Shown: positions 9,842-26,398, counted from the first letter of the stretch. The stretch: DNA of 32,000 nucleotides from Candidatus Methanoperedens sp. (GCA_041494705.1 JBGQBI010000003.1:1-32000), one strand, 5' to 3'. Made by a program: numbers and translations. Notes: a model not told the origin generated them from the letters alone.

Positions 9842-11800
9842 ATGGATGACATGTCGGAATATAAGGAAATGTATGCGGTTGAAGCAGCAGAACACCTTCA
9901 ATCGATGAATGAGGCGCTTCTCAATCTTGAGAAAGACCCGGAAAACAGTGAAACGATTAATGTAATGTTCAGGGCGGCTCACACGCTAAAAGGCATGTCT
10001 GCAACTATGGGTTACACCAATATCAAGGAACTCACCCATGAAATGGAAAACCTGATGGACAGCGCCCGGAAAAACGAGATGAAACTTGATTCTGCGGCTA
10101 TCGATATACTTTTCGAAGGTCTTGATAAGCTTGAAAAAATGGCGGAAAACCCTGAAAATTGTTCGCAATTCGATATATCCGCTCTGATAGGGAAAATTTC
10201 ATTACTGTCAAAAAGGGAAACCGGGGCAGAAGCGACCGGGCAGGTAAAAACTCCCGGGACAGAAGCCGCAGATGTTACCCATGATAGCTCTAAACCCGGT
10301 AATACCGGCCAGGAAAAAGTCGAAGATGGCTGCACAATTTTAGATATTACTGTTACGCTTCACGAATCATGTGTTCTCAAATCTGCCCGTTCGACAGTTG
10401 TAATGAGGAATCTTTCAGAGCTCGGGGAAATTATTGAAACGCATCCTTCGATTAAGGAAATTGAAGACGAGAAGTTTGACAGGGAATTCAAGATTGTGGT
10501 TTCGACTAAAGAAGAGGCTGCAAAATTAGAAAAAAGTATAATGAAAATTTCAGAGATTGCAAAAGTGGAGATTAAAGCACATGAAGGGGCACAGGCAAAG
10601 GCAAAAGTTGAAGAAAAATCCTGCAATCCCGATAGTAACAAGACCGCAATAAAAAGCGTCCAGAGCGTCCGTGTAAGTATAGAACGCCTGGATTCGCTGA
10701 TGAACCTTGTCGGGGAACTGATTATTAATAAAATACGCTTGATGCAGCTTGCCACTGTTCATAAACTGGATGTCCTGGAAGAGACGCTTGCAAGTCTTAA
10801 CCGTCTTACGAATGAATTGCAGGAAGAAATCATGGCATCCAGGATGGTACCGATTGAACAGATATTCAACCGTTTCCCGAGGATGGTCAGGGACCTTGCC
10901 AAAAAAGAGGAAAAAGATATAGATTTAATCCTGGAAGGCGGTGATATTGAACTTGACCGTACCGTGCTGGATGAGATAGGAGACCCGCTTGTCCATATCC
11001 TCAGGAACTGTGTGGACCATGGTATCGAATCCCCGGAGGTCAGGAAACAGGCAGGTAAAAACCCCAGGGGTACTATCAGGTTGATTGCAAGGCGTGAGAA
11101 AAATCATGTGGTCATTGAAGCCACGGATGACGGTAAAGGAATGGACCCGCAGAAGTTTCGGGAAACTGCTGTCAAGAAAGGGTTATTGACGCAGGAAGAG
11201 GCGACAAAACTTTCAGATAATGAAGCAATCAACCTGTCATTCATGCCCGGGTTCAGCACAGCTGAGAAAGTAACAGATGTTTCAGGGCGCGGGGTGGGGA
11301 TGGACGTTGTGAGAACCAAAATAGGGAGTATGGGCGGCTCGATAAAACTTGAATCTGCAAAAGGGGCAGGTACAAAAATCATTCTCAAATTGCCTTTAAC
11401 TGTGGCAATCATCCATTCCCTGATGGTAAAGGTAGGAAAGGATGTCTATGCCGTGCCCATTGCCAATGTGGTAAGGGATTTGTCTGTCAAGAAAGACCAG
11501 ATAAAGACAATAAAGGGCGAGGAAGTTATATTGATACGGGGCGAAGTCCTGCCTATTGTCCGGCTTCACAAGCTTTTCGGAATCATCGATACCAACGGTT
11601 CGGAAGACCTTCTTGTCGTGGTCGTGGAACGAGGCGGAAGCAATATCGGGCTTGTTGTGGACCAGGTCATCGGCCAGCAGGAAGTAATACTCAAGAACCT
11701 TGAAAATCATATTCTCAAAGGCGTCAGGGGATTTGCCGGAGCGACAATACTGGGTGACGGCAATGTTGCACTGATTCTTGACGTGGGGACACTGCTATGA
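9842..11800 (+). CDS. cheA: Chemotaxis histidine kinase CheA
   Basis: Hpt H-box FRAAHTLKGMSATMG, dimerisation segment, HATPase (HILRNCVDHGIE, DDGKGMD, GRGVGMDVV), and a C-terminal CheW-like domain. Confidence 0.95.
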   Translation: MDDMSEYKEMYAVEAAEHLQSMNEALLNLEKDPENSETINVMFRAAHTLKGMSATMGYTNIKELTHEMENLMDSARKNEMKLDSAAIDILFEGLDKLEKMAENPENCSQFDISALIGKISLLSKRETGAEATGQVKTPGTEAADVTHDSSKPGNTGQEKVEDGCTILDITVTLHESCVLKSARSTVVMRNLSELGEIIETHPSIKEIEDEKFDREFKIVVSTKEEAAKLEKSIMKISEIAKVEIKAHEGAQAKAKVEEKSCNPDSNKTAIKSVQSVRVSIERLDSLMNLVGELIINKIRLMQLATVHKLDVLEETLASLNRLTNELQEEIMASRMVPIEQIFNRFPRMVRDLAKKEEKDIDLILEGGDIELDRTVLDEIGDPLVHILRNCVDHGIESPEVRKQAGKNPRGTIRLIARREKNHVVIEATDDGKGMDPQKFRETAVKKGLLTQEEATKLSDNEAINLSFMPGFSTAEKVTDVSGRGVGMDVVRTKIGSMGGSIKLESAKGAGTKIILKLPLTVAIIHSLMVKVGKDVYAVPIANVVRDLSVKKDQIKTIKGEEVILIRGEVLPIVRLHKLFGIIDTNGSEDLLVVVVERGGSNIGLVVDQVIGQQEVILKNLENHILKGVRGFAGATILGDGNVALILDVGTLL

Positions 11801-12639
11801 TAAATACTTCTGATATCGTGACATTGCGCGAGGATGACAGGGAATTTTCAGAATTAAAAGTTATTATCAAGAGGAAAATCGGTTTTAATTGCGAGCAATA
11901 CAAGCAGGCGCATTTGAAAAGGAGACTGGCTGTCAGGCTCAGGGCAACCCAATCAAAATCTTATAAAGAGTATGCAGAGGTCCTTTTAAAAAATCTGGCT
12001 GAAGAGAAACAATTGAAAGAGACATTAACAGTCAATGTTACGGAATTGTTCAGGAACCCTGAAACCTACGAAGCGTTTCGTGCAACGGTGCTTCCTGAAT
12101 TGATTAAATCCAGAGGAGAGAACCGGACCTTGAAAGTATGGAGCGCCGGATGCTCAAATGGGGAAGAACCGTATTCCATAGCCATTATGCTGGCCGAATA
12201 CCTGGGAATAGCAGCCAGGAGATATAATATCTCCATCATGGGCACAGATATTGATGAGGATTCACTCAGTAAAGCTGAACTTGGCATATTTCATCCGAAG
12301 GCACTCGAAAAAATAAGTAAAGAAAGGCTTGAACGTTTTTTTATTAAGAAAGATAATAATTATCAGGTCACTGACGGAATTCATCGCATGATCACTTTTA
12401 AAAACCATGATTTGATATCCGGACCGAAACTATCAGGATTTGACATAATCTTTTGCAGGAATGTCACTATATATTTTGAGCAGAAACTTCAGGAGAAGCT
12501 TTATTTTGATTTCTATAATGCCCTGAAAGACGGCGGTTATTTTGTTATGGGAAAAACAGAAACCCTTATCGGACAATCAAGCAAGCTTTTCAAACACGTT
12601 GATTTGAAAGAAAGGATATACCAAAAGAAGGCAAACTAA
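11797..12639 (+). CDS. cheR: Chemotaxis protein methyltransferase CheR
   Basis: TELFRNPETYEAF, then LKVWSAGCSNGEEPYSIAI and IFCRNVTIYF (SAM-binding fold). ATGA overlap with cheA. Confidence 0.85.
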   Translation: MINTSDIVTLREDDREFSELKVIIKRKIGFNCEQYKQAHLKRRLAVRLRATQSKSYKEYAEVLLKNLAEEKQLKETLTVNVTELFRNPETYEAFRATVLPELIKSRGENRTLKVWSAGCSNGEEPYSIAIMLAEYLGIAARRYNISIMGTDIDEDSLSKAELGIFHPKALEKISKERLERFFIKKDNNYQVTDGIHRMITFKNHDLISGPKLSGFDIIFCRNVTIYFEQKLQEKLYFDFYNALKDGGYFVMGKTETLIGQSSKLFKHVDLKERIYQKKAN

Positions 12640-12641
12640 AT

Positions 12642-13259
12642 ATGACTGAAATAAAAACACTTACTGAATTCCAGAAAGATGCACTCAAAGAGGTCGGGAA
12701 TATCGGGATTGGGCATGCAACAACATCGCTCTCCCAGATGGTCAACAAGCCTGTCTGGATATCCCTGCCCGACCTTAAGCTGATACCATTAATAAAAGTG
12801 GCTGTCCTTGTAAAGAATGAAGCACCAGTGATAGGGATAATACTGGAATTGACAGGGGATACCAAAGGGTTTCTTCTGCTTTTATTATCGAAAAAAAGCG
12901 CGAAGTACCTGATTAATCTTGTACTTGGTACGGTAAATGAGACCGAGACATTTGATGAAATGGAACAATCTGTCCTTAAAGAGCTGGGAAACATAATGAG
13001 CGGGACTTATATAACCTCTCTTTCAAATTTCCTGGGAATATCAATTGGTCTTTCGCCGCCCTTAAATATATATGATATGGCCGATGCAATAATTAACCAG
13101 ATTGTATGCATGATGAGCAGGGATGTCGAAGATGTCCTGTTTATAAACACCGAATTCACAATAAACACCGAGAAAATTGAAGGGAAAATACTCATATTTA
13201 CAGATTCTGCATCCCTTTCTAAAATACTGGATTCCATAAACAGGATTTCAGGGAATTAA
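12642..13259 (+). CDS. cheC: CheY-P phosphatase CheC
   Basis: Two CheC-type motifs, DALKEVGNIGIGHA and SVLKELGNIMSGTY. 205 aa. Confidence 0.8.
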   Translation: MTEIKTLTEFQKDALKEVGNIGIGHATTSLSQMVNKPVWISLPDLKLIPLIKVAVLVKNEAPVIGIILELTGDTKGFLLLLLSKKSAKYLINLVLGTVNETETFDEMEQSVLKELGNIMSGTYITSLSNFLGISIGLSPPLNIYDMADAIINQIVCMMSRDVEDVLFINTEFTINTEKIEGKILIFTDSASLSKILDSINRISGN

Positions 13260-13348
13260 AACAGCATTTCGAGCTATATTTATATCCATCATCATAATGA
13301 TAGTTATCAGCAAACCTTATTACTTTAAAGAATAATATACATTACATT

Positions 13349-13837
13349 ATGGATATGGTTAAAGAGAAGATTATCGTCGGAATTGCAGACCTTGTCGTTG
13401 TTCATAACCCGGCAGTGCTTGTAACAATTGGACTTGGTTCATGTGTAGCGATTTCATTCCGCGACCCGGTGGCAAAATTCGGGGGACTTGCCCATATATT
13501 ACTTCCCGCTATAGAGGAATCAAGAAATAAAGACAATCCTTTGAAATTTGCGGATACAGCCATCGAAAAGGGTGTTGAGATGATGCTCCAGAAGGGCTGT
13601 GCGAAGAACAGGATAGAAACCAAGATAGCGGGTGGGGCAAGCATGTTTGCTTTCAGAGATGCGGATTTGCAGATAGGGGCAAAAAATGTTGAAGCTGTCA
13701 GGAGAAAACTTAAAGATTTGAAACTTCCGATTATAGCAAGCGATACCGGGGGAAATTACGGCAGGACCATAGAATTCGATATCGCATCCGGGGCTATGTT
13801 TGTTAAAAGCGCATTTAATGGGAACAAAGAAATTTAA
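13349..13837 (+). CDS. cheD: Chemoreceptor glutamine deamidase CheD
   Basis: GLGSCVAI active-site Cys context and GLAHILLP. 162 aa. Confidence 0.85.
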   Translation: MDMVKEKIIVGIADLVVVHNPAVLVTIGLGSCVAISFRDPVAKFGGLAHILLPAIEESRNKDNPLKFADTAIEKGVEMMLQKGCAKNRIETKIAGGASMFAFRDADLQIGAKNVEAVRRKLKDLKLPIIASDTGGNYGRTIEFDIASGAMFVKSAFNGNKEI

Positions 13838-13843
13838 TTTTTC

Positions 13844-14746
13844 TTAATGGTAATCCTCATGCCCTATTTCCACAGGGGCGCATTCGGCACATTCAAATTG
13901 CAGTGTGGTATGCAATATCCGAAACCTGTCTTTTACAATTTCGCTTATCCTGGTTATTAATATCTCAGTCTGCTGGACATGAATCCTGTCCACAACTACA
14001 TGGGCGCTCATAGCATGGATATTGGAGCAAATACTCCATATATGAATATCATGAACTCCTTTTATGCCTTCTATCTGCATCATTGTTTCTTTTAATTTAT
14101 CAGCATCAACATGCGCGGGGGCGAACTCAAGGAGAATCCGGGCGGAGCCGAAAATGAGCCTGACAGAACCGTACAAAAGCATGATGCCCAACAAAATGCC
14201 AAGCGCAGGGTCAACAATTGTTTTGCCTGTGAAAATGATGATAAGGGCTCCCGCTATCACCCCGATGGATGCAAGGGCGTCCCCGATTACATGCAGGTAT
14301 GCACCTCTGATATTGAGATCATGATGCCCACGCAATTTTAAAGCCACCCACATATTCACAACCAGTCCCACGCTGGCTATTATCAGCACCTCAGCTCCCC
14401 TCACCGGGGGAGGATTCAGGATTCTTCCATAAGCCTCATAAAAGATGAATATGGAAATTCCGAGAATCGTTAATCCATTCATTAATGCAGCAAAAATTTC
14501 AAACCTGTGGTAACCGAAGGTAACATTCCTGTTGGATGGACGGGAGGATATTTTTATTGCGCCGTAGGTAAGAACCAGTGCCACCGCATCCGTAAAAACA
14601 TGGGCTGCATCCGAAAGAAGAGCAAGGCTGTTGGATATTATTCCCCCCGCAAATTCGAGGAAAAAAATAAGGATTGTGAGGATTATTGCAATCTTTAAGT
14701 TCTTATTTATATCTCCCATGTTACAGTCATATAAGATTGGCGCCAT
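13844..14746 (-). CDS. Cation diffusion facilitator family transporter (CzcD/ZitB-like)
   Basis: LLSDAAHVFTD in TM2 and HVIGDALASIG in TM5, with a C-terminal cytoplasmic domain. An alternative start is ATG 14719. Confidence 0.85.
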   Translation of the reverse strand: MAPILYDCNMGDINKNLKIAIILTILIFFLEFAGGIISNSLALLSDAAHVFTDAVALVLTYGAIKISSRPSNRNVTFGYHRFEIFAALMNGLTILGISIFIFYEAYGRILNPPPVRGAEVLIIASVGLVVNMWVALKLRGHHDLNIRGAYLHVIGDALASIGVIAGALIIIFTGKTIVDPALGILLGIMLLYGSVRLIFGSARILLEFAPAHVDADKLKETMMQIEGIKGVHDIHIWSICSNIHAMSAHVVVDRIHVQQTEILITRISEIVKDRFRILHTTLQFECAECAPVEIGHEDYH

Positions 14747-15790: not shown

Positions 15791-16744
15791 TTAATCAACA
15801 GGGTTGTCAGGTATTTTACAAACATCAAGTTTCTTGCATACTTCGCAATCCGTTTCACATGGTTCAATATGTATCAGGATTGAAAGGTTTGGGATTTGCT
15901 CTTTTATATCCTTTTCAAGATGGTCGCAGAATTCATGCGCCTCAACAACCTGCTGGTTTTTGGGCACAACAAGATGCAAATCCACATATCTCTCGGCGCC
16001 AGACATCCTTGTGCGTAAGTCATGATATTCAGCAAATTCCGAGTAATGCTCTGAAATTATGGATTTGATGATATTCTCTTCCTTGTCTGAAAGTTTCATA
16101 TCCATAAGCCCTGAAACAGAGCGCTTTGTCAGGTCGTATGAAGCCTTGATTATAATGAGCGCTACGATTATTGCCATAACCGGGTCAAAAATGGGATTGT
16201 TGGTTAATTTAATGAGAATAAGACCTATGAAAACACCTATCGAGGTATATACATCCGTGGTGAGGTGATAGGCATCTGCCTCGAGTGCAATAGATTCAGC
16301 TTTTTTTGCCACTTTCATGATTCTTGATGACACATAAAAATTGACAATAGCAGAGATACCCATGACGACAATACCGACCCCGATCATCTCGAATTCAATC
16401 CCATCATTTCCCAGTAACTTTTCACCTGATTTATAAAGTATAATTATTGCTGCTACGAAAATGAGAATTGCTTCTACGGTTCCGGATACATTCTCAAATT
16501 TACCATGCCCGAACTTGTGTTCATCATCAGCAGGTTGTCCTGCTTTCCTAACAGAATAATTCGCTATTATAGCAGCAAGGAGGTCTATGCCTGAATGCAG
16601 GGCTTCGGAGAGTATGCTTATTGAACCTATGACTAAGCCGACCGCGAGCTTCATGATAAGTAACAGAGAATTGGAATATATGGAGAGTTTCGCTACCGAG
16701 GTAATTTCCTTATGAGCTGCAAAATACTTGTTGTTTTCAGGCAT
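15791..16744 (-). CDS. Cation diffusion facilitator family transporter (FieF-like) with Cys-rich C-terminal tail
   Basis: SILSEALHSGIDL and HLTTDVYTSIG motifs. The tail is CETDCEVCKKLDVC. Confidence 0.85.
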   Translation of the reverse strand: MPENNKYFAAHKEITSVAKLSIYSNSLLLIMKLAVGLVIGSISILSEALHSGIDLLAAIIANYSVRKAGQPADDEHKFGHGKFENVSGTVEAILIFVAAIIILYKSGEKLLGNDGIEFEMIGVGIVVMGISAIVNFYVSSRIMKVAKKAESIALEADAYHLTTDVYTSIGVFIGLILIKLTNNPIFDPVMAIIVALIIIKASYDLTKRSVSGLMDMKLSDKEENIIKSIISEHYSEFAEYHDLRTRMSGAERYVDLHLVVPKNQQVVEAHEFCDHLEKDIKEQIPNLSILIHIEPCETDCEVCKKLDVCKIPDNPVD

Positions 16745-16942
16745 TTATTTTAGCTTAATCTCAGTAATAGTATAAAGGGGTATTTATTTGACCTATTTTG
16801 CATAGGCAAATCCTGAGACGATTACAAAATCTATTTATCAATCCCGAAAGAAGAAAAAACTACAGGTATGGAGATAGGTATAAATATGCATAAAATTAAC
16901 ATTATAATCACTGGAGGACACGTTATAAAGGAGGCCAGAATT

Positions 16943-17110
16943 ATGTGCAGCACATATACGCCGTTTGAAATAAAGCCGGAAGAACTGGCAGAGATAGGAA
17001 GAACATACGGGATGTACTGGTGCATGTCATGCAAGAAGACTTTCCTGAAAAAAGGAGCAATTGAATGCCCGAACTGCGGCTCAAAGAAAATAAAACCGAG
17101 AGCGCCATAA
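16943..17110 (+). CDS. Small zinc-ribbon protein (55 aa), hypothetical
   Basis: AAGGAGG lies 6 nt upstream of ATG 16943 (the ORF-track start at 16868 is upstream of this RBS). The CMSC...CPNC pair forms a Zn-ribbon signature. Confidence 0.45.
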   Translation: MCSTYTPFEIKPEELAEIGRTYGMYWCMSCKKTFLKKGAIECPNCGSKKIKPRAP

Positions 17111-17116
17111 AAACTA

Positions 17117-19330
17117 TCAGGTAACTCTTACAATATTCTTTTCAATCAACCCATTCAAAAAGTTTTTGCACTTTAGTTCAGCTTCGCTGTAATGCATCCG
17201 GTACTTTTCTTTGAGTTTGTTTATTATATCGGATAAATTAGCTCTGCCGCTGCAATTGTCCAGAATATCCCTTGCAAAATCAGTGATGGTAAAAATCCTG
17301 TTATTATTAGTGTCAAATAGTACATTTGTCCGTTCCTTTTGCAGGTCCTCCTTTAAAAGAATTCCTTCCATCATGGCATGATGTATTAGCGCCCAATTGA
17401 AGTTAAACGGTCCAACAAAAACCCCTTCGTTAAGTATCGGGTAAATCTTATTATTATTTAAGGGGGTTGCCGCGGGTCTATTAATTGTGTGCTTTTTGTA
17501 TATTTTATCAGTAAGTTCAGATAGCTCCGGGACTTTCTTTCTGGAACCCTTGTAGTGGGAGATGTAAAGGAAAAGATGTTCCCTGTCAAGATTGCTCCAT
17601 ATCGGGAAATCCCGGTACTGTAGCGATAGCTTATAGTAGAATTCCTGTATCAGTTCATCCGTTTCCTTTTTCGACATACCTCTGGCGGTTTCATGCTCGT
17701 ACCAGAGCGACAGGTCTGTGCCATCATCCTGGGATATTTTACTGATGTCAAACGATGCGGGGTTTTCGAAAACTCTTGAATGTTTGGTAAGCTGGAAACT
17801 GCCAAAGGACATTGAACTGATTATATTCCTATTTTGCAGGATAAAATCAATAGTCTCCTCTGCTTCATCAGGCGTCTCTGTAGGAAATCCGAATATCAAA
17901 AAGAGGTGCGTCCATATACCCGCATCATTGCTGTATTTACAGATATTCAGGACATTTTCTTTTTTTATCCCCTTATCCATGCACGTCAGAATCCTGTCAT
18001 TGGCCGACTCCAGTCCAAAATACAGCATCTTACATCCTGCCTCAGCAATCTTATTACTGAGTTCAGCAGAAAATGCAGGCTCAAACCTTGAATCAGCCAG
18101 CCACGATATATCAAGACCGTGTTCTATTATCTTGTCTGATAAAGCGCCAATCAATTTTGGGGATACACCTTCATCCTGAAACGTGAAAAATCCTGTTTTA
18201 TATTTTTCCTTTAAGGTTTCAAGATCATTATATAATAGCTCAATATCCCTGGGTCTGTAATTCCCGGAATAACCATAGCTGTGGTCGCAAAACGTACAGC
18301 GTCTCCAGTAACATCCTCTCGATGAAAGAACAGGAAGGATGAGCTCAGGCGATAGATACCTGTCAAGAGGTAAATCATCAAAGCATGGTGTCGGTAATGA
18401 GTTAATATCTTCTCCTTCTGAATTGATCCTGTTTACCCTGATTTCCGAGCCCTTTTTATATATGAGATTCTGAACGTCTTTTATGTCAAGTTCATTATTT
18501 AAATGTTTAATCAGGTTCATTAAGGCAGTTTCACCCTCATGTACAATCACGCTGTCAAAGAGTGAGAATAGCTCATTATTCTGGCGTATCTCCTTGATAA
18601 GGCGTGTGAAAACGCTGCCTCCGATGTTAATATGCACATTCCCGCTGGCTTTTTTAATTAAATTTGCCAGGGTTAATCCCGGGATTAACTGGCTTGTATT
18701 GATTATCGAGATTCCTATTAGCCCGGGTTCGTTCTTCAGGACTTCTGGAACTATGTTTTTCTCGAAATAATCAATAAAAAGATTTTCTTCCCTGTCATTT
18801 ATGGCAGAAAGAACATCCCTACTTCCGCGGCATGAATAGCGCATATAATAATCATTAAAAGTCAGATTTGTAGGATAATAAGCTGATGAAGCAAGCTTAA
18901 GCCCAAGCTTAAGTATCTTAAAAGCGCTGAAATGTTCTTCATAATCGTAAAAATCTTCTTTATTTCTCAGAATTTTTTTTGCACTATCTATCTCTTCAAG
19001 GATGTATTCGCCATAAAGTATAGAACTACCCAATGCATGATACTGTTTTTGAAGGTCATGCGGTAATTCTTTTTTGGAATCAAGCTCCTGGAATTTCGAA
19101 TAAGCCCTCTCATAGAAAGGAGAAAGCCCCTTTTTACTCAATATCTCGTCATAGAAGGATACATTAATATCCATCTGCTCCACGTCACAGCCATTGGCTT
19201 TCAGGAAAGCGGTTAGAGAGGGAAGACTCAAATAAGGCTGGGTTGGAATCCATTGCGGCGGGAATAATAATTTTGTAAGCATATTTTTTAGTTTGAATAA
19301 GGTACAATTCCAATAAAACTTTTGGTTCAC
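17117..19330 (-). CDS. B12-binding-domain radical SAM protein with C-terminal PqqD-like (RRE) domain
   Basis: N-terminus LLFPPQWIPTQPYLSLPSLTAFLKANGCDV...GLIGISIINTSQ...INIGGS. Cluster motif SSRGCYWRRCTFCDH (CX4CX2C). C-terminus VLFDTNNNRIFTITDFARDILDNCSGRANLSDIINKLKEKY...FLNGLIEKNIV. A likely alternative start is ATG 19282 (MLTKLLFPP). Confidence 0.85.
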   Translation of the reverse strand: MNQKFYWNCTLFKLKNMLTKLLFPPQWIPTQPYLSLPSLTAFLKANGCDVEQMDINVSFYDEILSKKGLSPFYERAYSKFQELDSKKELPHDLQKQYHALGSSILYGEYILEEIDSAKKILRNKEDFYDYEEHFSAFKILKLGLKLASSAYYPTNLTFNDYYMRYSCRGSRDVLSAINDREENLFIDYFEKNIVPEVLKNEPGLIGISIINTSQLIPGLTLANLIKKASGNVHINIGGSVFTRLIKEIRQNNELFSLFDSVIVHEGETALMNLIKHLNNELDIKDVQNLIYKKGSEIRVNRINSEGEDINSLPTPCFDDLPLDRYLSPELILPVLSSRGCYWRRCTFCDHSYGYSGNYRPRDIELLYNDLETLKEKYKTGFFTFQDEGVSPKLIGALSDKIIEHGLDISWLADSRFEPAFSAELSNKIAEAGCKMLYFGLESANDRILTCMDKGIKKENVLNICKYSNDAGIWTHLFLIFGFPTETPDEAEETIDFILQNRNIISSMSFGSFQLTKHSRVFENPASFDISKISQDDGTDLSLWYEHETARGMSKKETDELIQEFYYKLSLQYRDFPIWSNLDREHLFLYISHYKGSRKKVPELSELTDKIYKKHTINRPAATPLNNNKIYPILNEGVFVGPFNFNWALIHHAMMEGILLKEDLQKERTNVLFDTNNNRIFTITDFARDILDNCSGRANLSDIINKLKEKYRMHYSEAELKCKNFLNGLIEKNIVRVT

Positions 19331-19373
19331 CTACCACAAACTTTATGTGAGATAATTGTGATTCATGTCATAA

Positions 19374-19688
19374 GTGATTTTCGTGGCAGATACTAAATCT
19401 AAATATGTAGGCGATGAATTTGTTGAAGAGGAAAATATTGCGGATGAGAAAGGAACTGAACTTCAGGGCCTGTATGACCTTGTTTTACCACCGGGAGTTC
19501 CTCAAAGATTGATTATGGAGGCTATGGAAAAATTTAATTTAGAAGTTATCGTCCGCAAATGTGCGCTCAAAACCATCGAAGTTGAAACTGATAATCTTCT
19601 GGTATTACGGGGGGAACTTGATGCGGTAAATAATGCGCATGATTATATTTTTCAAAAAATGAGTAAAAAGTATAATTATAAGAAATAA
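19374..19688 (+). CDS. Hypothetical acidic protein (104 aa, GTG start), divergent from the radical SAM gene
   Basis: The ORF is open from GTG 19374 and has no recognisable family. A T9 tract follows the stop. Coding status is inferred from ORF length and position only. Confidence 0.45.
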   Translation: MIFVADTKSKYVGDEFVEEENIADEKGTELQGLYDLVLPPGVPQRLIMEAMEKFNLEVIVRKCALKTIEVETDNLLVLRGELDAVNNAHDYIFQKMSKKYNYKK

Positions 19689-19762: not shown

Positions 19763-20011
19763 TTAAAACAGGCGCTCTTTACCAATAGGTCTTGTAGCTC
19801 CGGTTCCTCCGCAATTTGTGCATGGTATGTCATGCATTAAATAACCTCTTCCCTTGCACCACTGGCATTTCCGTGATGAGTCTACAACCTCTACTTTTCC
19901 TTTTCCGTCGCAGACAATACATGCCTTGCCAAAGTGTTTCCCTGTCCCATCACAATATGCACATTTCACTTCACCTGGTACTTTGGGTGTTCTTACTTTT
20001 GCTTCTGCCAT
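19763..20011 (-). CDS. Stand-alone DnaJ-type zinc-finger protein (four CXXCXGXG repeats)
   Basis: 82 aa containing CAYCDGTG, CIVCDGKG, CQWCKGRG and CTNCGGTG. GGTGATG RBS about 9 nt upstream of the ATG. Confidence 0.7.
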   Translation of the reverse strand: MAEAKVRTPKVPGEVKCAYCDGTGKHFGKACIVCDGKGKVEVVDSSRKCQWCKGRGYLMHDIPCTNCGGTGATRPIGKERLF

Positions 20012-20118: not shown

Positions 20119-21819
20119 TTACTTTGCTGGGATAACGAATGCTCTCTCACCGGCGCAGCGGTCCCACTCTCTGAGTGCTGCCTTGCCGAATGCTCCTCTT
20201 GGGTCAGAGAAGTCAAAGTTGATCAAGTCATCTGCGAAGCAGGTCTTGACTAACGGATTGACACAGAACGCGTCCTTGCCAGCGTGAGCTGCTGCTACTA
20301 CTGAGGTGTATCCACCCTGGTGACCTACGTTCATTGCGTAGTTCGGGTAGTTAGCGCCTCTGCATTCGCCTATGCAGCCCTCGTCTGATGCAATTGAGAA
20401 CACGTTGGTTGCGCCGCACTGATCCTGCAGGTCATACCCGTAGAATCCGAGTCTGCCGTGTGCCTCTTTGTGGAGGTACATGGACAGGTACCATGCAGAG
20501 AGACCGGCCTGGCTGTGGCCTGTTGCCATAGCTGTTGCGCCGCCTGCTGCGATTGATACGACTGTTGCGCGCTGTGAACCACCGAAATGGTCTTCCAGTG
20601 TTGTCGGGTACTTCTCGTACTGCTCAAGACTGTACAGTGTTGTTTCTGTAGCGATGTCTTTTACTGTCTCGATTGTAGCCTTGGCCTTTCCATTTCCGCC
20701 GTATTTCTTTGATGCGTAGTCGTTGCCCCAGTACAGGAAGTCATCGACGATATCGTTGGTGTATGCTGGTGTTGCATACATTGTGAATCCGACGCCGCCT
20801 GACATGTAGCCACCGAGCCAGATCTGGTCATACAGCATTGTGGCCGCGCTTGCGGTCTGCAATACTACATTGACTGGATCTTTTGGTGTCTTCCTGTTAG
20901 TCTGGCAGATATCTGCCATATGACCGAAGGATAATCCTCCAGGTTCATTTGGGCCTCTTGCTCTGCGAGCTGGGATCATATCACCCATTTCGACAAGTCC
21001 AGCGTGTTTGGCTGTGAATGCAAGTTCACCGACTGCTGCTTCACCGGCGCACATATGATATGCGCTGATAAAGGTCATACCGACCTGCATTGCCATCCAG
21101 CGGCTTGTGCCTGGTCCATCTTCAGTTCTTGTAACGATGGTTGGGATGTGCACTGCCTGCCAGGAAGTCTTGCCGACTGCAGCCTTGACCTGTTTTGCCT
21201 GGTCTGCTGGGAATTCGTTGTCAATGTTGATAACGAACTGCTTATCTACTTCATCCTGTAAGGTTTCGTCACCTGTGAATATTTTCACATAGCAGTCATC
21301 TACTAATGCCGGGTGTGTTTCGACCATGTGTTCCTGAACGATTGCTGCGCCAGGCATTGCGTGGTTTAAAACTTCCAGATAGTAGTTGATTGTCTCAGGT
21401 GTAACTTCCTTGCCCAATCTCTTCTCAAGAGTCTCATGTGCGAGGTCAAGACCTACGACGCATGTTCTCCTGATATCGTCCCATTCCTGCTGCATTGCTG
21501 CATTGTTGACGAAGTGAAGATCGTCACCATCGCATACGATATCTGTTCCAGATATTGTGTATGGGGTCAACTGTCTCTGACCCATGGGTATGCCAGCAAG
21601 GTGCAGTTTAGGATCATATGCCTGCAATCCTCTCTTCTTGGTGATTGCTGCTCCGCATTTTGCCATTTCGACCTTTCTTGGGTTCTGTGTATAGCCAAGT
21701 CTCAGGTATTTGGTCTTCTTATCGGTTATCTTTGCTTTTGCAGTGGAGCCGCATTTGTTTGATCCCCATTCTTTTGCGTACTTTGTTTCCATTGATTTCT
21801 TGAATCTTGGTTCTGCCAT
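20119..21819 (-). CDS. mcrA: Methyl-coenzyme M reductase subunit alpha (McrA)
   Basis: 566 aa collinear with Methanosarcinales McrA. Landmarks: [77 protein letters not shown]. Confidence 0.97.
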
Positions 21820-21829
21820 TTAGCTCACC

Positions 21830-22579
21830 TCACGCCTTTGGGACGAACCCATATTTGGTTCTTAATTCCCAGACTTTCTGAACATGTTCAACAACTTCCT
21901 TGTCGCTTCTGAAGGATACGTTGTCCACTCTATAGATAGTGGTTCTCTTGGCTGCTTCTGCTTCGCTCATTGGTTTGCCAAGGTTGACTTTTCTGTCAAT
22001 TGGGACGCCGACCTGGTCCTTGTCACTTACAATAACGCCGCCTTCCAGTCTGCGCCTGTCCAGCATATCGAACATTGTTCCATCTTCCTGCAATCTGAGG
22101 GAGTGACCGTGAACTGTACAGCCTCTAAGACCTGCAAGACCCCAGTCAGTCATTTCGGTCTCTGCCTGTCTCTTGGTGTACTCTTCCATATCTCTCTCTC
22201 TCATTTCGTTGACCTGTCTGCCTGACAGTGTTCCTGGGTCAACTCCTCTGAAATTGATTGCTGCATGGTACGATCTCCAGTATGGTGTTGACGGAGCATT
22301 GTACATGGAGTCAGAGAACTGTGAATATCTGACTCTGTCTCCAGCTGCTGCGCCTGGTGTTGGTGTAACAACTTCTCTTACGGAGCATTCTGGTTCGCCC
22401 ATCTCTGAAAGTGGTGGATGTGTGCTGGGATAATCCGAACCGGGTGCTCTGTGACCCAGTAATGCTGTTAAGTCCTCATCGGAAATATCACGCAGTTTCT
22501 CTACGTCATCAGACATGTGTTTTCTTCTATTCTTAGCAACTGAGGTATTGCCAGGATAATATTGTGGTTTGTATGCCAT
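21830..22579 (-). CDS. mcrG: Methyl-coenzyme M reductase subunit gamma (McrG)
   Basis: GHRAPGSDYPSTHPPLSEMGEPEC, AINFRGVDPGTLSGRQ, HGHSLRLQEDGTMFDMLDRRRLEGG. Confidence 0.95.
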   Translation of the reverse strand: MAYKPQYYPGNTSVAKNRRKHMSDDVEKLRDISDEDLTALLGHRAPGSDYPSTHPPLSEMGEPECSVREVVTPTPGAAAGDRVRYSQFSDSMYNAPSTPYWRSYHAAINFRGVDPGTLSGRQVNEMRERDMEEYTKRQAETEMTDWGLAGLRGCTVHGHSLRLQEDGTMFDMLDRRRLEGGVIVSDKDQVGVPIDRKVNLGKPMSEAEAAKRTTIYRVDNVSFRSDKEVVEHVQKVWELRTKYGFVPKA

Positions 22580-22634
22580 ATTTTTTCCTCCTAATTAATT
22601 TGAATCGGTTCCTTCTGCTCTGTGATGGATAAAC

Positions 22635-23156
22635 TCATGATTTCTCCTCTGTTCCAATTACACAGAGGTTCGTTTCCGCTTTTGCATGCGGGTCCATTAG
22701 GCCGAGTATTCGTTCATCTTCAAGATTGATACTTTCATCAGTCTTGCTTTTGAACCCATACTTACCGTAATCTGTCAAAGTAGCTTTTTTCTTGATGAAG
22801 AATCCCTGTTTGAATTCAAAGGAAAAAGGTAACGCTCGCTCACACGCTTTTCTAAGTTCTTCCTTTGCTGTTTCATCCTCTATTTCGACAATTACCTCGC
22901 CAACCATGACATGCAATTCGAATGCACAATCTCCTACATGGATTATTTCCATGTTGGGGTGGTTAACATCCGTCCCGGTTCCAGGTCCGCATGTGACCTT
23001 CCTGGGAAGATTTTTACCAGCGATAAGCATTCGTATTACCCCTTTGACCTGATCAATCTCATTTAAGAGTTTTTCAGCAGTCGCAGGTTGTAATAATCTA
23101 CACGGAAATACTTTGATCTGGATCGGTTTACCCGGTATTGAAGCAGCTCTTACCAT
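22635..23156 (-). CDS. mcrD: Methyl-coenzyme M reductase operon protein D (McrD)
   Basis: 173 aa. IQIKVFPCRLLQPATAEKLLNEI...GPGTGTDVNHP...LPFSFEFKQGFFIKKKATLTDYGK matches the McrD pattern rather than the longer McrC. Confidence 0.85.
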   Translation of the reverse strand: MVRAASIPGKPIQIKVFPCRLLQPATAEKLLNEIDQVKGVIRMLIAGKNLPRKVTCGPGTGTDVNHPNMEIIHVGDCAFELHVMVGEVIVEIEDETAKEELRKACERALPFSFEFKQGFFIKKKATLTDYGKYGFKSKTDESINLEDERILGLMDPHAKAETNLCVIGTEEKS

Positions 23157-23169
23157 TCAATTCTCCGAT

Positions 23170-24474
23170 TTATACGGCTCCTGCTACTGCCTTGATTGGC
23201 TCTCTGAATTCATCTACTGAGCTGAAGACATCTCCTACTAATCCTGAGGTCTTCTCGGGGCTGTAGATCTGAACACCTGCGTCAAGAGCAACTGCTGCTG
23301 CTACGCATGGTACTGCCAGACCCTTTGAGTGCCTGGTAACGACGTGGTTGCCGTTGAAGACTCCTGGTCCACCGCCTCCATAAATGGAGTGTGAGAAGAA
23401 GGAGAATCCGACTGCTGCGCCCTGTACTTTACCGAAGTCACATCCTGGGAGTGAGGTTTCCTTCTCAATGAGGTCGTTGAAGTACAGCAATACTGCTGAT
23501 ACTGACTGTGGGGCTCTCATTGCACCGCAGTTGATGAGTGTTGCTACAAGTGTGCCTGCTGCACAATATGCATTCCACTTTCCGACATCATTGGTCTTGT
23601 ATGTAGTATAGCCAGATGCGAATTTCTTATCTGCACTGATTACCTTGTCTGCGATTGCCTTTTCGACAGTTGCATGGACTGCTGTACCGATTGTACCGGT
23701 CTTGCCCAATGCTTTTACTGTTCCATACACCATGTTGTTTGCATTTAAGCCCTGGTGTGAAAATGCCAGTAATCTGTGTCTTTCCTGGTTACCGATTGCG
23801 TCACCCATTTCGAATACGCCTGTATTCTCAAGGATTGAGCAGAGGGCGGCTGTGTTCATAGCGCTCTTCTTGCATGTTGCTGCAAGGTGGTTTGCCATGA
23901 CGTTTCTTAATGTATAGCCAAAGCCTTCATCTTTCTGTGGGATTTCGACGATTGACTTTACGTTTCCGCCTACCATATCAAGTGTCTGTGGGTACTGTCC
24001 CCATACTGCGGACTTGATGGTTGGTGCATCGAACATTCCAATGTTGAACTGGCTTATTATTGCCTGTGTTGTTGCTGATGCTGCGCAGGTTAATGATGAA
24101 ACATATTCTGCTGCTACATCTATTCTTGCGGATGGAACTTGAACGATTAACTGTTTTCCACCATTTAAGGCATTTACAACGGTGTCATCTCCGCTGTCTA
24201 CCTTTACCATATCGGCAACTGCGGCCTGTATTTTTCCAGCGTTCTTTACTATGTCCAATTTCATTTCTTTACCGGGAATCTTTCTGCCCTTGCCACCGAT
24301 TGCTGCGGTTGCTAAGGTTTTCTCGATTCCTGCTAAGTCAACGGCTGCTGTTCGCTTAATACCGGTGACTATTTTTTTGATAGCGGCATTTCTCATCGGG
24401 CTTATGTCGTTTATGTCGACGCCTGATTTGAGTTTTGCTCCTCTGTCGCTATATAGGTCTATTGTGTCAGCCAC
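23170..24474 (-). CDS. mcrB: Methyl-coenzyme M reductase subunit beta (McrB), GTG start
   Basis: MADTIDLYSDRG...RNAAIKKIV...; 434 aa. TAGGAGGT RBS 7 nt upstream of the GTG. Confidence 0.95.
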   Translation of the reverse strand: MADTIDLYSDRGAKLKSGVDINDISPMRNAAIKKIVTGIKRTAAVDLAGIEKTLATAAIGGKGRKIPGKEMKLDIVKNAGKIQAAVADMVKVDSGDDTVVNALNGGKQLIVQVPSARIDVAAEYVSSLTCAASATTQAIISQFNIGMFDAPTIKSAVWGQYPQTLDMVGGNVKSIVEIPQKDEGFGYTLRNVMANHLAATCKKSAMNTAALCSILENTGVFEMGDAIGNQERHRLLAFSHQGLNANNMVYGTVKALGKTGTIGTAVHATVEKAIADKVISADKKFASGYTTYKTNDVGKWNAYCAAGTLVATLINCGAMRAPQSVSAVLLYFNDLIEKETSLPGCDFGKVQGAAVGFSFFSHSIYGGGGPGVFNGNHVVTRHSKGLAVPCVAAAVALDAGVQIYSPEKTSGLVGDVFSSVDEFREPIKAVAGAV

Positions 24475-25162: not shown

Positions 25163-26398
25163 ATGGAAATACTCGCAGACATCGGAGGACGCCCAGGGCA
25201 TGATTGCCGCGGTTTTTGCAGGTACTGTTATTTCAGGGGAGTAAAGGAAGTCCCGGCTTTTGGATGCAAGCACTGCCCCCCCTTCCAGAAAGGATGCAAT
25301 TACTGCACCAAAAATGTAAAAGAGGGCTATTCGAGCTTTAAACCGTTTTCCATGGTGGCCCAGGAAGTCCAGCAGGCAGTTTTTTTCAACAAAAATGTAT
25401 CAAAATTCAACGTAAGCGGCGGAGGGGATGTGAGCTGCTATCCTGAACTCAAATCGCTTGTGAAATTCCTCTCGCAATTTAAAAAGCCGGTACATCTTGG
25501 CTATACAAGCGGGAAAGGGCTGAATAAAGAAGATGCGCTGTTCTTCATCAACCACGGCGTAAAAGAAGTTACGTTCACTGTTTTTGCAACCGACCCTGAA
25601 CTTCGGCGAACATACATGAACGACAGGACAGCCGAGGATTCACTTGAAGCACTTCGTACCTTTGCGCAGCATATCGATGTATATGCCGCTTCAGTGCTCA
25701 TTCCAAGCGTAAATGATGGCGCTGTTCTTTTAAAAACCTGCGCAGACCTTGAGGAAATGGGCGTAAAAGGTCTCATCCTGATGCGGTTTGCCAATGCCGT
25801 TGAGCAGGGCTTGATCCTGAATAACGCCCCGGTGATAGAAGGGGTAATCCCTCATACGCTTTCCGAATTCAAGGCAATCGTTGATAATATAAACGATAAG
25901 TTCAAATTCCGCGTAACGGGAACGCCCCTTTACGACCCTGAAACTGGCTCGCCGTTTGCTATTAGGAATGAACCCGAAGCGCTTTTGAAACTGCCCAGGC
26001 TCACAAAAGAGGCTACAATAATAACAAGCGAAGTCGCTGCTCCGTTTCTGGAAGACATTTTCGGCAAGCTGAGTGGGCTGGTAAATATAGTGCCTGTAAA
26101 AAAAGACGTTGGCTGCCTGATTACTATTGAAGATGTAAAAGCTCTTGACCTGTCCCAAATAAAGGAGACTGTTTTATTCCCAGGGAGGGCGTTTGTCCAT
26201 GACCCTGAGATTAAGAAAGTATTGACGGGCGACGGCGTGGATAGATTGGTGCGCAGGGGCCCTGATATGCTAACGGTTGATGGGGAGATGAGCATTTCGA
26301 TGACGAAGGATGAGGTTATTGCTAAGGAGACAGAGGCTTTTACTGAATTGATACAGATGATAAATGTGCTGGGAACGGCGCCTAAAAAACAGCTTTAA
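25163..26398 (+). CDS. mmp10: Methanogenesis marker protein 10 (Mmp10), B12-dependent radical SAM McrA arginine C-methyltransferase
   Basis: N-terminus [20 protein letters not shown] (CX3CX2C), then [52 protein letters not shown], and [16 protein letters not shown]. 411 aa, next to mcr as in Methanosarcina. Confidence 0.85.

Follow-up and report, generated by a model that had tools for sequence, protein, structure and literature searches.

Beside the operon for methyl-coenzyme M reductase (MCR) of Candidatus Methanoperedens sp. (GCA_041494705.1 JBGQBI010000003.1:1-32000) lies a gene, here called rSAM, for a cobalamin-type radical S-adenosylmethionine (SAM) enzyme with a fused C-terminal RiPP recognition element (RRE; RiPP stands for ribosomally synthesized and posttranslationally modified peptide). 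The window, i.e., the whole stretch of 32,000 nucleotides that was analyzed and whose numbering is used for all positions, is an mcr locus of ANME-2d, a lineage of anaerobic methanotrophic archaea (ANME). We propose, at a probability of roughly 60%, that rSAM is a class B C-methyltransferase, guided by its RRE, whose target is the β-carbon (Cβ) of His159 in the MCR γ subunit, McrG. MCR makes and consumes nearly all biological methane, and expressing methanotrophic MCR in tractable hosts depends on knowing the maturation enzymes that it needs. The rSAM gene is the best genomic candidate for the McrG 3-methylhistidine enzyme and a single, specific one for the methylation that the 2025 ANME-2d structures left without an assigned enzyme, and it reduces that question to a one-gene experiment. 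If the proposal is right, methylation of histidine Cβ would be added to radical SAM chemistry, an RRE would be shown to work on a subunit of a housekeeping enzyme, and a part would be supplied for the engineering of methane-activating MCR.

To our knowledge, no natural protein apart from McrG has so far been seen to contain the proposed product, 3(S)-methylhistidine. Two ANME-2d MCRs, solved at atomic resolution, showed seven modifications (Mueller et al., Nat Commun 2025; PMC12413448), among them a previously unknown 3(S)-methylhistidine at γ-chain His159, next to cofactor F430, which is the first modification on any MCR γ chain. In contrast to ANME-2c MCR, both of these enzymes are without 2(S)-methylglutamine; didehydroaspartate and 6-hydroxytryptophan occur in the ANME-2c enzyme too, and the cofactor of ANME-2 MCR is the classic, unmodified F430 (PMC12413448). 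The same authors pointed out that His159 is exposed on the free γ subunit and that its methyl group needs a radical enzyme like Mmp10 or MgmA, and they named no enzyme (PMC12413448). The N- and S-methylations of MCR are the work of ordinary SAM methyltransferases, and its thioglycine is made by a YcaO protein (PMC11796369). Our literature search, of incomplete coverage, returned no publication that assigns an enzyme to 3-methylHis159.

The organisms in which the modification was observed can be tied to the gene. The γ chains of the two structures (9QQT_C, ANME-2d V; 9QR1_C, ANME-2d O) align one-to-one with the McrG of the window, and their modified residue X159 corresponds to His159 in TVHG-H-SLRL. 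X aside, 9QQT_C and 9QR1_C are identical to the McrG sequences of isolate METP1 (locus L021) and Ca. Methanoperedens sp. BLZ2 (locus L023), and both loci carry an rSAM orthologue directly after mcrBDGA-ZnF-MJ0093, where ZnF is a DnaJ-type zinc-finger gene and MJ0093 a gene of the MJ0093 family. The organisms with observed 3-methylHis159 therefore have the rSAM gene at the same position. When every GTDB species was scanned through one representative genome, orthologues 60 to 93% identical to rSAM turned up exclusively in Methanoperedenaceae, in 39 species; relatives at the next level of identity belonged to one bacterium of the Dehalococcoidia (44%), one archaeon of the Thermococci (34%), and numerous Nitrospinota (34 to 39%). 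An exhaustive HMMER search over 1.84 billion cluster representatives (50% clustering) retrieved 2412 relatives at E ≤ 1e-30, of which a single 50%-identity cluster was more than 50% identical to rSAM, the next best reaching 43%. Among the Methanoperedenaceae loci with at least 1.5 kb of upstream flank, mcrA lies upstream of rSAM in 23 of 28, and gene calls in a further three genomes, all divergent, gave the same order of DUF2098, mcrBDGA, ZnF, MJ0093, and rSAM, with a variable gene after rSAM. The phyletic pattern is thus that of a gene limited to one family, mostly adjacent to mcr, and standing beside the genes of both MCRs with proven 3-methylHis159, which are the only two enzymes in which the modification has been mapped. 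MgmA was itself identified by its phyletic pattern and its clustering with mcr (PMC11796369).

The choice of target rests on a comparison of the MCR modifications. 3-MethylHis159 is favored because it is the only lineage-specific C-methylation and rSAM is a lineage-specific class B enzyme. 5-Methylarginine already has its enzyme in Mmp10, and mmp10 is in the window; with mmp10 on one side and rSAM on the other, the mcr operon is bracketed by two radical SAM genes. Didehydroaspartate and 6-hydroxytryptophan fit rSAM poorly because they are present in ANME-2c, where no rSAM orthologue was found. Besides, the nearest curated relatives of rSAM methylate peptide side-chain carbons, and methylation of peptide β-carbons by B12-dependent radical SAM enzymes has a precedent in the clavusporin pair MpcBC, one member of which may be an RRE-like partner. 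An additional MCR-directed modifying enzyme had been one suggestion of an earlier note on this DNA, made from the sequence alone; the evidence favors that idea and shifts its target from McrA to McrG His159.

The domain architecture that the earlier note had read from the sequence was confirmed. All three Pfam families anticipated by the earlier note scored above cutoff: Radical_SAM (PF04055) at residues 336 to 497 (66.4 bits, cutoff 29.5), PqqD (PF05402) at residues 670 to 734 (29.3 bits, cutoff 23.4), and, marginally, B12-binding (PF02310) at residues 191 to 273 (32.7 bits, cutoff 32.1). These Pfam coordinates count from the GTG at 19330, the first codon of the mechanical open reading frame (ORF) of 737 amino acids at 17117..19330 (-), whereas structural residue ranges follow a 721-residue numbering. 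The longer frame, on which the earlier note had relied, exists, but the true start is the ATG at 19282 because all orthologues begin with MLTKL in the alignments and the public gene call on identical DNA is of 721 residues. An AlphaFold2 (AF2) model built on 55 homologues is confident (mean predicted local distance difference test [pLDDT] 93.4; predicted template modeling score 0.92). It confirms that a cobalamin-type Rossmann domain is split, with strand β1 at residues 2 to 7, a helix at 19 to 29, β2 at 33 to 38, a helical insert at about 39 to 181, and β3 at 188 to 192; the insert is longer than the approximately 130 residues first estimated, at about 145. Beyond the insert, the Rossmann domain is completed and leads on to the barrel of the radical SAM core, to a bridging region, and finally to a C-terminal domain of strands and helices. 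The top Foldseek neighbors of the whole model are all structures of B12-dependent radical SAM enzymes and include OxsB, CysS, TokK, TsrM, MgmA, and AprD4.

The C-terminal domain bears out the prediction of a PqqD-family RRE. When the C-terminal 128 residues were modeled in isolation, pLDDT was 83.8, with a core above 90, and Foldseek matched them best to PqqD (5sxy) and to lasso-peptide B1 proteins with bound leader (6jx3 and TbiB1 [5v1u/5v1v]), at target TM-scores of 0.71 to 0.82; 6jx3 superposes at 0.82 and a root mean square deviation of 2.1 Å. The domain model and its matches show the three strands and three helices of a winged helix-turn-helix. SPASM-type cysteines are lacking at the C terminus, as had been noticed: Pfam gave no SPASM match, and the cysteines that follow C348 are isolated ones at 433, 450, 464, 693, and 721 (737-residue numbering). 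rSAM is very probably a class B enzyme with a genuine RRE whose substrate is a peptide or protein. Cobalamin binding and methyl transfer via methylcobalamin are predicted from the domains and the fold, and binding of a substrate peptide segment by the RRE is predicted from the model.

The cluster motif C-YWRR-C-TF-C was likewise confirmed in the DNA, but its CX4CX2C spacing had been taken for a distinguishing oddity, and that part did not survive. The spacing is shared by 263 of the 269 homologues retrieved (consensus G-C-Y-W-x-[RK]-C-[AT]-F-C) and does not vary in alignments that reach as low as about 30% identity. OxsB, whose cluster-binding motif is CX4CX2C (review, PMC9204698), aligns to it as C-DYSR-C-TF-C. 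The spacing is a clade-wide trait with structural precedent and no peculiarity of rSAM, and we rejected it as a novelty.

Within the curated families of NCBIfam, rSAM came closest to the PhpK methylase family (118.8 bits, cutoff 600) and to the RiPP C-methyltransferases, represented by TIGR03975 (RiPP maturation radical SAM C-methyltransferase; 115.3 bits, cutoff 281.85) and ApyD (114.5 bits, cutoff 750). The MgmA model TIGR04014 gave 61.4 bits against a cutoff of 360, and TIGR03278 (Mmp10) was not among the best 25 families; an identity of rSAM with either enzyme was rejected on these scores. Eight diverse relatives were also searched for a named family of the wider clade, and none of them reached any NCBIfam cutoff. 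These scores and the HMMER relatives place rSAM in a large, uncharacterized class B clade outside every curated family tested, some of whose members have an RRE and others not. The clade being nearest to RiPP C-methyltransferases, rSAM was probably recruited into MCR maturation from a peptide-modifying ancestry. In dozens of Nitrospinota species (L049 to L084), homologues 34 to 39% identical match residues 1 to 578 only; they have the split B12 domain and CX4CX2C and are devoid of an RRE, with an ORF of 591 amino acids in L049.

Comparison with characterized systems defines what rSAM shares and what it does not. MgmA (TIGR04014, PDB 9CCB) is also a cobalamin-dependent radical SAM methylase that acts on an MCR subunit before assembly, its gene often clusters with mcr, and it ranks ninth among the Foldseek neighbors of rSAM; however, it has neither the Rossmann insert nor an RRE, is about 300 residues shorter, and targets the Cα of an McrA glutamine, a modification absent in ANME-2d MCR. 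Mmp10 (TIGR03278) resembles rSAM as a radical SAM, cobalamin-requiring MCR methylase (McrA arginine C5) encoded beside mcr, but it belongs to another family, counts 411 residues, and is without an N-terminal Rossmann B12 domain and without an RRE. Class B RiPP C-methyltransferases (TIGR03975 and ApyD; functionally also PoyC and MpcBC) use B12 and radical SAM chemistry to methylate unactivated side-chain carbons of peptides, Cβ included, and MpcB works with a putative RRE partner; rSAM differs in scoring below their cutoffs, in the C-terminal fusion of its RRE, and in having no accompanying precursor gene. The closest solved structure both by sequence (E = 4.7e-10) and by fold is OxsB (PDB 5UL2-5UL4), which shares the CX4CX2C motif and an N-terminal extension ahead of the B12 domain, yet is only about 16% identical, lacks an RRE, and contracts the ring of a nucleotide rather than methylating. 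PqqD and the lasso-peptide B1 proteins have the fold of the last approximately 105 residues of rSAM, for which the Pfam PqqD threshold is passed. Such RREs stand alone or at the N terminus of SPASM-type radical SAM enzymes (CteB, SuiB) and bind leaders of dedicated precursors, whereas that of rSAM is C-terminal on a B12-dependent radical SAM enzyme and its proposed ligand is an enzyme subunit of 249 residues.

A plausible course of the reaction can be derived from the enzyme class. The RRE would dock a segment of newly made, unassembled McrG, in which the His159 loop is solvent exposed. The reduced [4Fe-4S] cluster, held by CX4CX2C, would cleave SAM to a 5'-deoxyadenosyl radical that abstracts hydrogen from Cβ of His159, and the resulting carbon radical would capture the methyl group of methylcobalamin. 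Cob(II)alamin would then be reduced and would receive a new methyl group from a second SAM, which is also how the other methylases of class B proceed.

Maturation of MCR by B12-dependent radical SAM methylases has precedents, and rSAM is not a new kind of system. Three features set it apart: it belongs to another clade, it has an RRE fused at the C terminus, and its target, the Cβ of a histidine in the γ subunit, is probably a new one. We see about an even chance that rSAM is at once the maker of 3(S)-methylhistidine, the first MCR maturation enzyme for the γ subunit, and the first case in which an RRE, on a B12-dependent radical SAM methylase drawn from a lineage of peptide natural products, serves to modify a core catabolic enzyme of full size instead of a dedicated precursor.

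Several observations weigh against McrG His159 as the substrate. The link between rSAM and McrG, drawn from genomes and sequences, is correlative. The modification has been mapped in just two ANME-2d enzymes and sought in very few MCRs, and the presence of rSAM is documented for 39 Methanoperedenaceae species. At least five of the 28 informative loci (L011, L041, L043, L026, and L033) hold rSAM among housekeeping genes without mcr, in at least three independent genomic contexts (L041 and L043 share one), with genes for a HAD hydrolase and chorismate mutase in one and DUF92 and HisF in another. Because of these loci, adjacency to mcr is frequent, not obligatory. Twenty McrG sequences of Methanoperedenaceae all contain the stretch RGCTVHGHSLRL unchanged; the γ chains of Methanosarcina acetivorans, M. 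barkeri, and Methermicoccus shengliensis read RGATVHGHS[V/C]RL, with the residue deposited as ordinary His. Since MCRs without the modification also have His159 and share the greater part of the residues around it, there is no strong signal of substrate specificity. The differences between Methanoperedenaceae and Methanosarcina/Methermicoccus around His159 are confined to W146/G147, C155, and L161 (DWGLAG.RGCTVHGHSL versus D[PH]ALAG.RGATVHGHS[VC]), which are possible recognition determinants. We know of no RRE that recognizes a full-size folded enzyme subunit, and the B12-binding model barely exceeds its cutoff in rSAM. Finally, class B radical SAM enzymes can perform desaturation and other nonmethylation chemistry (preprint 10.1101/2025.10.20.683597).

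The best of the competing explanations, though an unlikely one, is that rSAM is a RiPP-like maturase. Its RRE would then hold a small peptide or protein of ribosomal origin for C-methylation, either one of the neighbors (Zn ribbon, MJ0093-like protein, DnaJ-type zinc finger) or a precursor whose gene is at another site, and the proximity of mcr would be incidental. Its appeal lies in the fused PqqD/RRE domain, a hallmark of RiPP enzymes, and in the RiPP C-methyltransferases as closest curated families. Synteny speaks for it in one point, since the convergent Zn-ribbon gene accompanies rSAM even without mcr, in four of the five such loci (L011, L026, L041, and L043; it is missing from L033). 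Over all 37 loci with enough flank, however, the Zn ribbon is near rSAM in 17 and absent from 20, and being convergent, it is not cotranscribed. An MJ0093-like gene is near rSAM in 26 of 33 loci with enough flank, but where mcr and rSAM are apart, the MJ0093-like and ZnF genes stay with mcr; besides, the MJ0093 Pfam family is named for a protein of Methanocaldococcus, an organism without rSAM. No small ORF that is both conserved and codirectional with rSAM was found across the 39 Methanoperedenaceae loci, nor was a conserved protease or exporter beside it in those inspected. None of the small neighbor genes behaves as a dedicated precursor, and the suggestion that rSAM modifies one of their products, the other possibility raised from the sequence alone, is disfavored by these counts. 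Among distant homologues, that of Dehalococcoidia (44% identical) has an ORF of 63 to 66 amino acids just upstream on the same strand, which would suit a maturase; the contexts inspected in Dehalococcoidia (L045), Thermococci (L048), and Nitrospinota (L049) held nothing clearly RiPP-like.

It is improbable that rSAM, while directed at MCR, installs didehydroaspartate or 6-hydroxytryptophan or modifies F430. It adjoins mcr, the enzymes for both residues are named neither in PMC12413448 nor in PMC11796369, and class B chemistry extends to desaturation, as mentioned above; yet both residues also occur in the ANME-2c enzyme, and no orthologue above 45% identity was found outside Methanoperedenaceae. 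The F430-directed role that had been entertained for the gene is unlikely because ANME-2 MCR holds the classic cofactor, and an RRE points to a peptide substrate rather than a tetrapyrrole. Least probable of all is an action on a membrane lipid, cofactor, or other nonprotein substrate after the manner of archaeal B12-dependent radical SAM lipid methylases and ring synthases, with another role for the PqqD-like domain: enzymes of this type that modify glycerol dialkyl glycerol tetraether lipids are known, several loci place rSAM among housekeeping genes, and there are matches to the lipid-biosynthesis family TIGR04072, HpnJ, and BchE, but these fall far under their cutoffs and are weaker than those to the RiPP and PhpK families, the RRE fold of the C-terminal domain is confident, and no lipid genes are in the neighborhood.

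Table 1. Features of the rSAM-mcr region (window coordinates; protein residues in 721-residue numbering)
Feature	Coordinates	Strand	Basis and remarks
rSAM gene, 721 aa, cobalamin-type radical SAM enzyme with C-terminal RRE	17117..19282	-	Stop codon 17117..17119
rSAM residues 1-38, first β-α-β of cobalamin-binding Rossmann domain (MLTKLLFPPQW...)	19169..19282	-	AF2 secondary structure; invariant across family
rSAM residues 39-181, all-helical insert splitting Rossmann domain	18740..19168	-	AF2; conserved through wider clade, homologues match from residue 4 on
rSAM residues 182-300, rest of B12-binding domain (GLIGISIINTSQ ... INIGGS ... VHEGE)	18383..18739	-	PF02310; Foldseek: OxsB, TokK, TsrM, CysS, MgmA
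rSAM residues 320-481, radical SAM core	17840..18325	-	PF04055, 66.4 bits
CX4CX2C motif CYWRRCTFC, C324/C329/C332	18287..18313	-	Sequence; OxsB precedent
rSAM residues 615-721, predicted PqqD-like RRE, winged helix-turn-helix	17120..17440	-	PF05402 match spans 17129..17323; domain model; Foldseek
McrG His159 codon CAC, proposed target	22103..22105	-	Aligns with modified X159 of 9QQT and 9QR1, chain C
mcrBDGA operon	20119..24474	-	mcrB 23170..24474, mcrD 22635..23156, mcrG 21830..22579, mcrA 20119..21819
mmp10, McrA arginine C-methyltransferase	25163..26398	+	TIGR03278 617.8 bits, cutoff 350; divergent from DUF2098-mcrBDGA
82-aa protein, four DnaJ-type CXXCXGXG zinc-finger repeats (ZnF)	19763..20011	-	PF00684 33.7 bits; 107 nt downstream of mcrA, same strand
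MJ0093-family protein, 104 aa	19374..19688	+	PF27275 by precomputed annotation; divergent from rSAM
Divergent intergenic region, rSAM/MJ0093-like	19283..19373	.	91 nt
Small Zn-ribbon protein	16868..17110	+	80 aa (public gene call) or 55 aa from 16943; Zn_ribbon_3 28 bits, cutoff 27; convergent with rSAM

The features of the locus (Table 1) are arranged in the order mmp10 <> DUF2098-mcrBDGA-ZnF, MJ0093-like <> rSAM >< Zn ribbon, where <> marks divergent and >< convergent neighbors. The start of rSAM is 837 nt from the end of mcrA, in agreement with the 0.8 kb read off before. With 39.3% GC against 41.7% for the window, rSAM gave no compositional signal of horizontal transfer. The operon comprises mcrBDGA without mcrC; in Ca. 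M. nitroreducens, an MCR_C gene is about 10 kb off on the other strand (L001 21664..22157).

The DnaJ-type ZnF gene adjoins mcrA in all 23 mcr-linked Methanoperedenaceae loci and is perhaps an additional gene of the mcr operon that is peculiar to this lineage, e.g., for an assembly factor. The divergent protein of 104 residues, described earlier as acidic, is mildly so (19 D+E versus 14 K+R) and belongs to PF27275; it had been credited with sharing a promoter region of at most 90 nt with rSAM, and the intergenic distance exceeds that by one nucleotide. This region presumably holds both promoters; AAAAGTTTTATTGG occurs in it, some 45 nt upstream of the ATG of rSAM. No PDB relative of the MJ0093-like protein was found, and the literature search gave no paper mentioning MJ0093. 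With the MJ0093-like and ZnF proteins as queries, a word index, which is insensitive for short proteins, gave close Methanoperedens relatives only (ZnF at 68% identity or more).

The convergent Zn ribbon reported before was confirmed, with the proviso that its ORF may also start at 16868, and its stop codon and that of rSAM are 6 nt apart. The second of its knuckles, CPNCG, is similar to that of a rubredoxin, and a role as redox partner is conceivable.

Further along the window, a run of chemotaxis genes is recognizable by the look of the translations at 9842..13837 (+), with CheA-like (9842..11800), CheR-like (11797..12639), CheC-like (12642..13259), and CheD-like (13349..13837) members. Two genes of cation-efflux type follow it (13844..14746 and 15791..16744); the Cation_efflux Pfam label was seen for the second only, in L085.

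Around the distant homologues, a gene for an ABC ATPase lies upstream of that of Thermococci (L048). The ORF of 63 to 66 amino acids next to the RRE-bearing Dehalococcoidia homologue (L045 9646..9846 [+]; also L004 9667..9858) has no Pfam match. It is located on the same strand, 136 nt upstream, and might encode a precursor peptide in the clade's bacterial branch.

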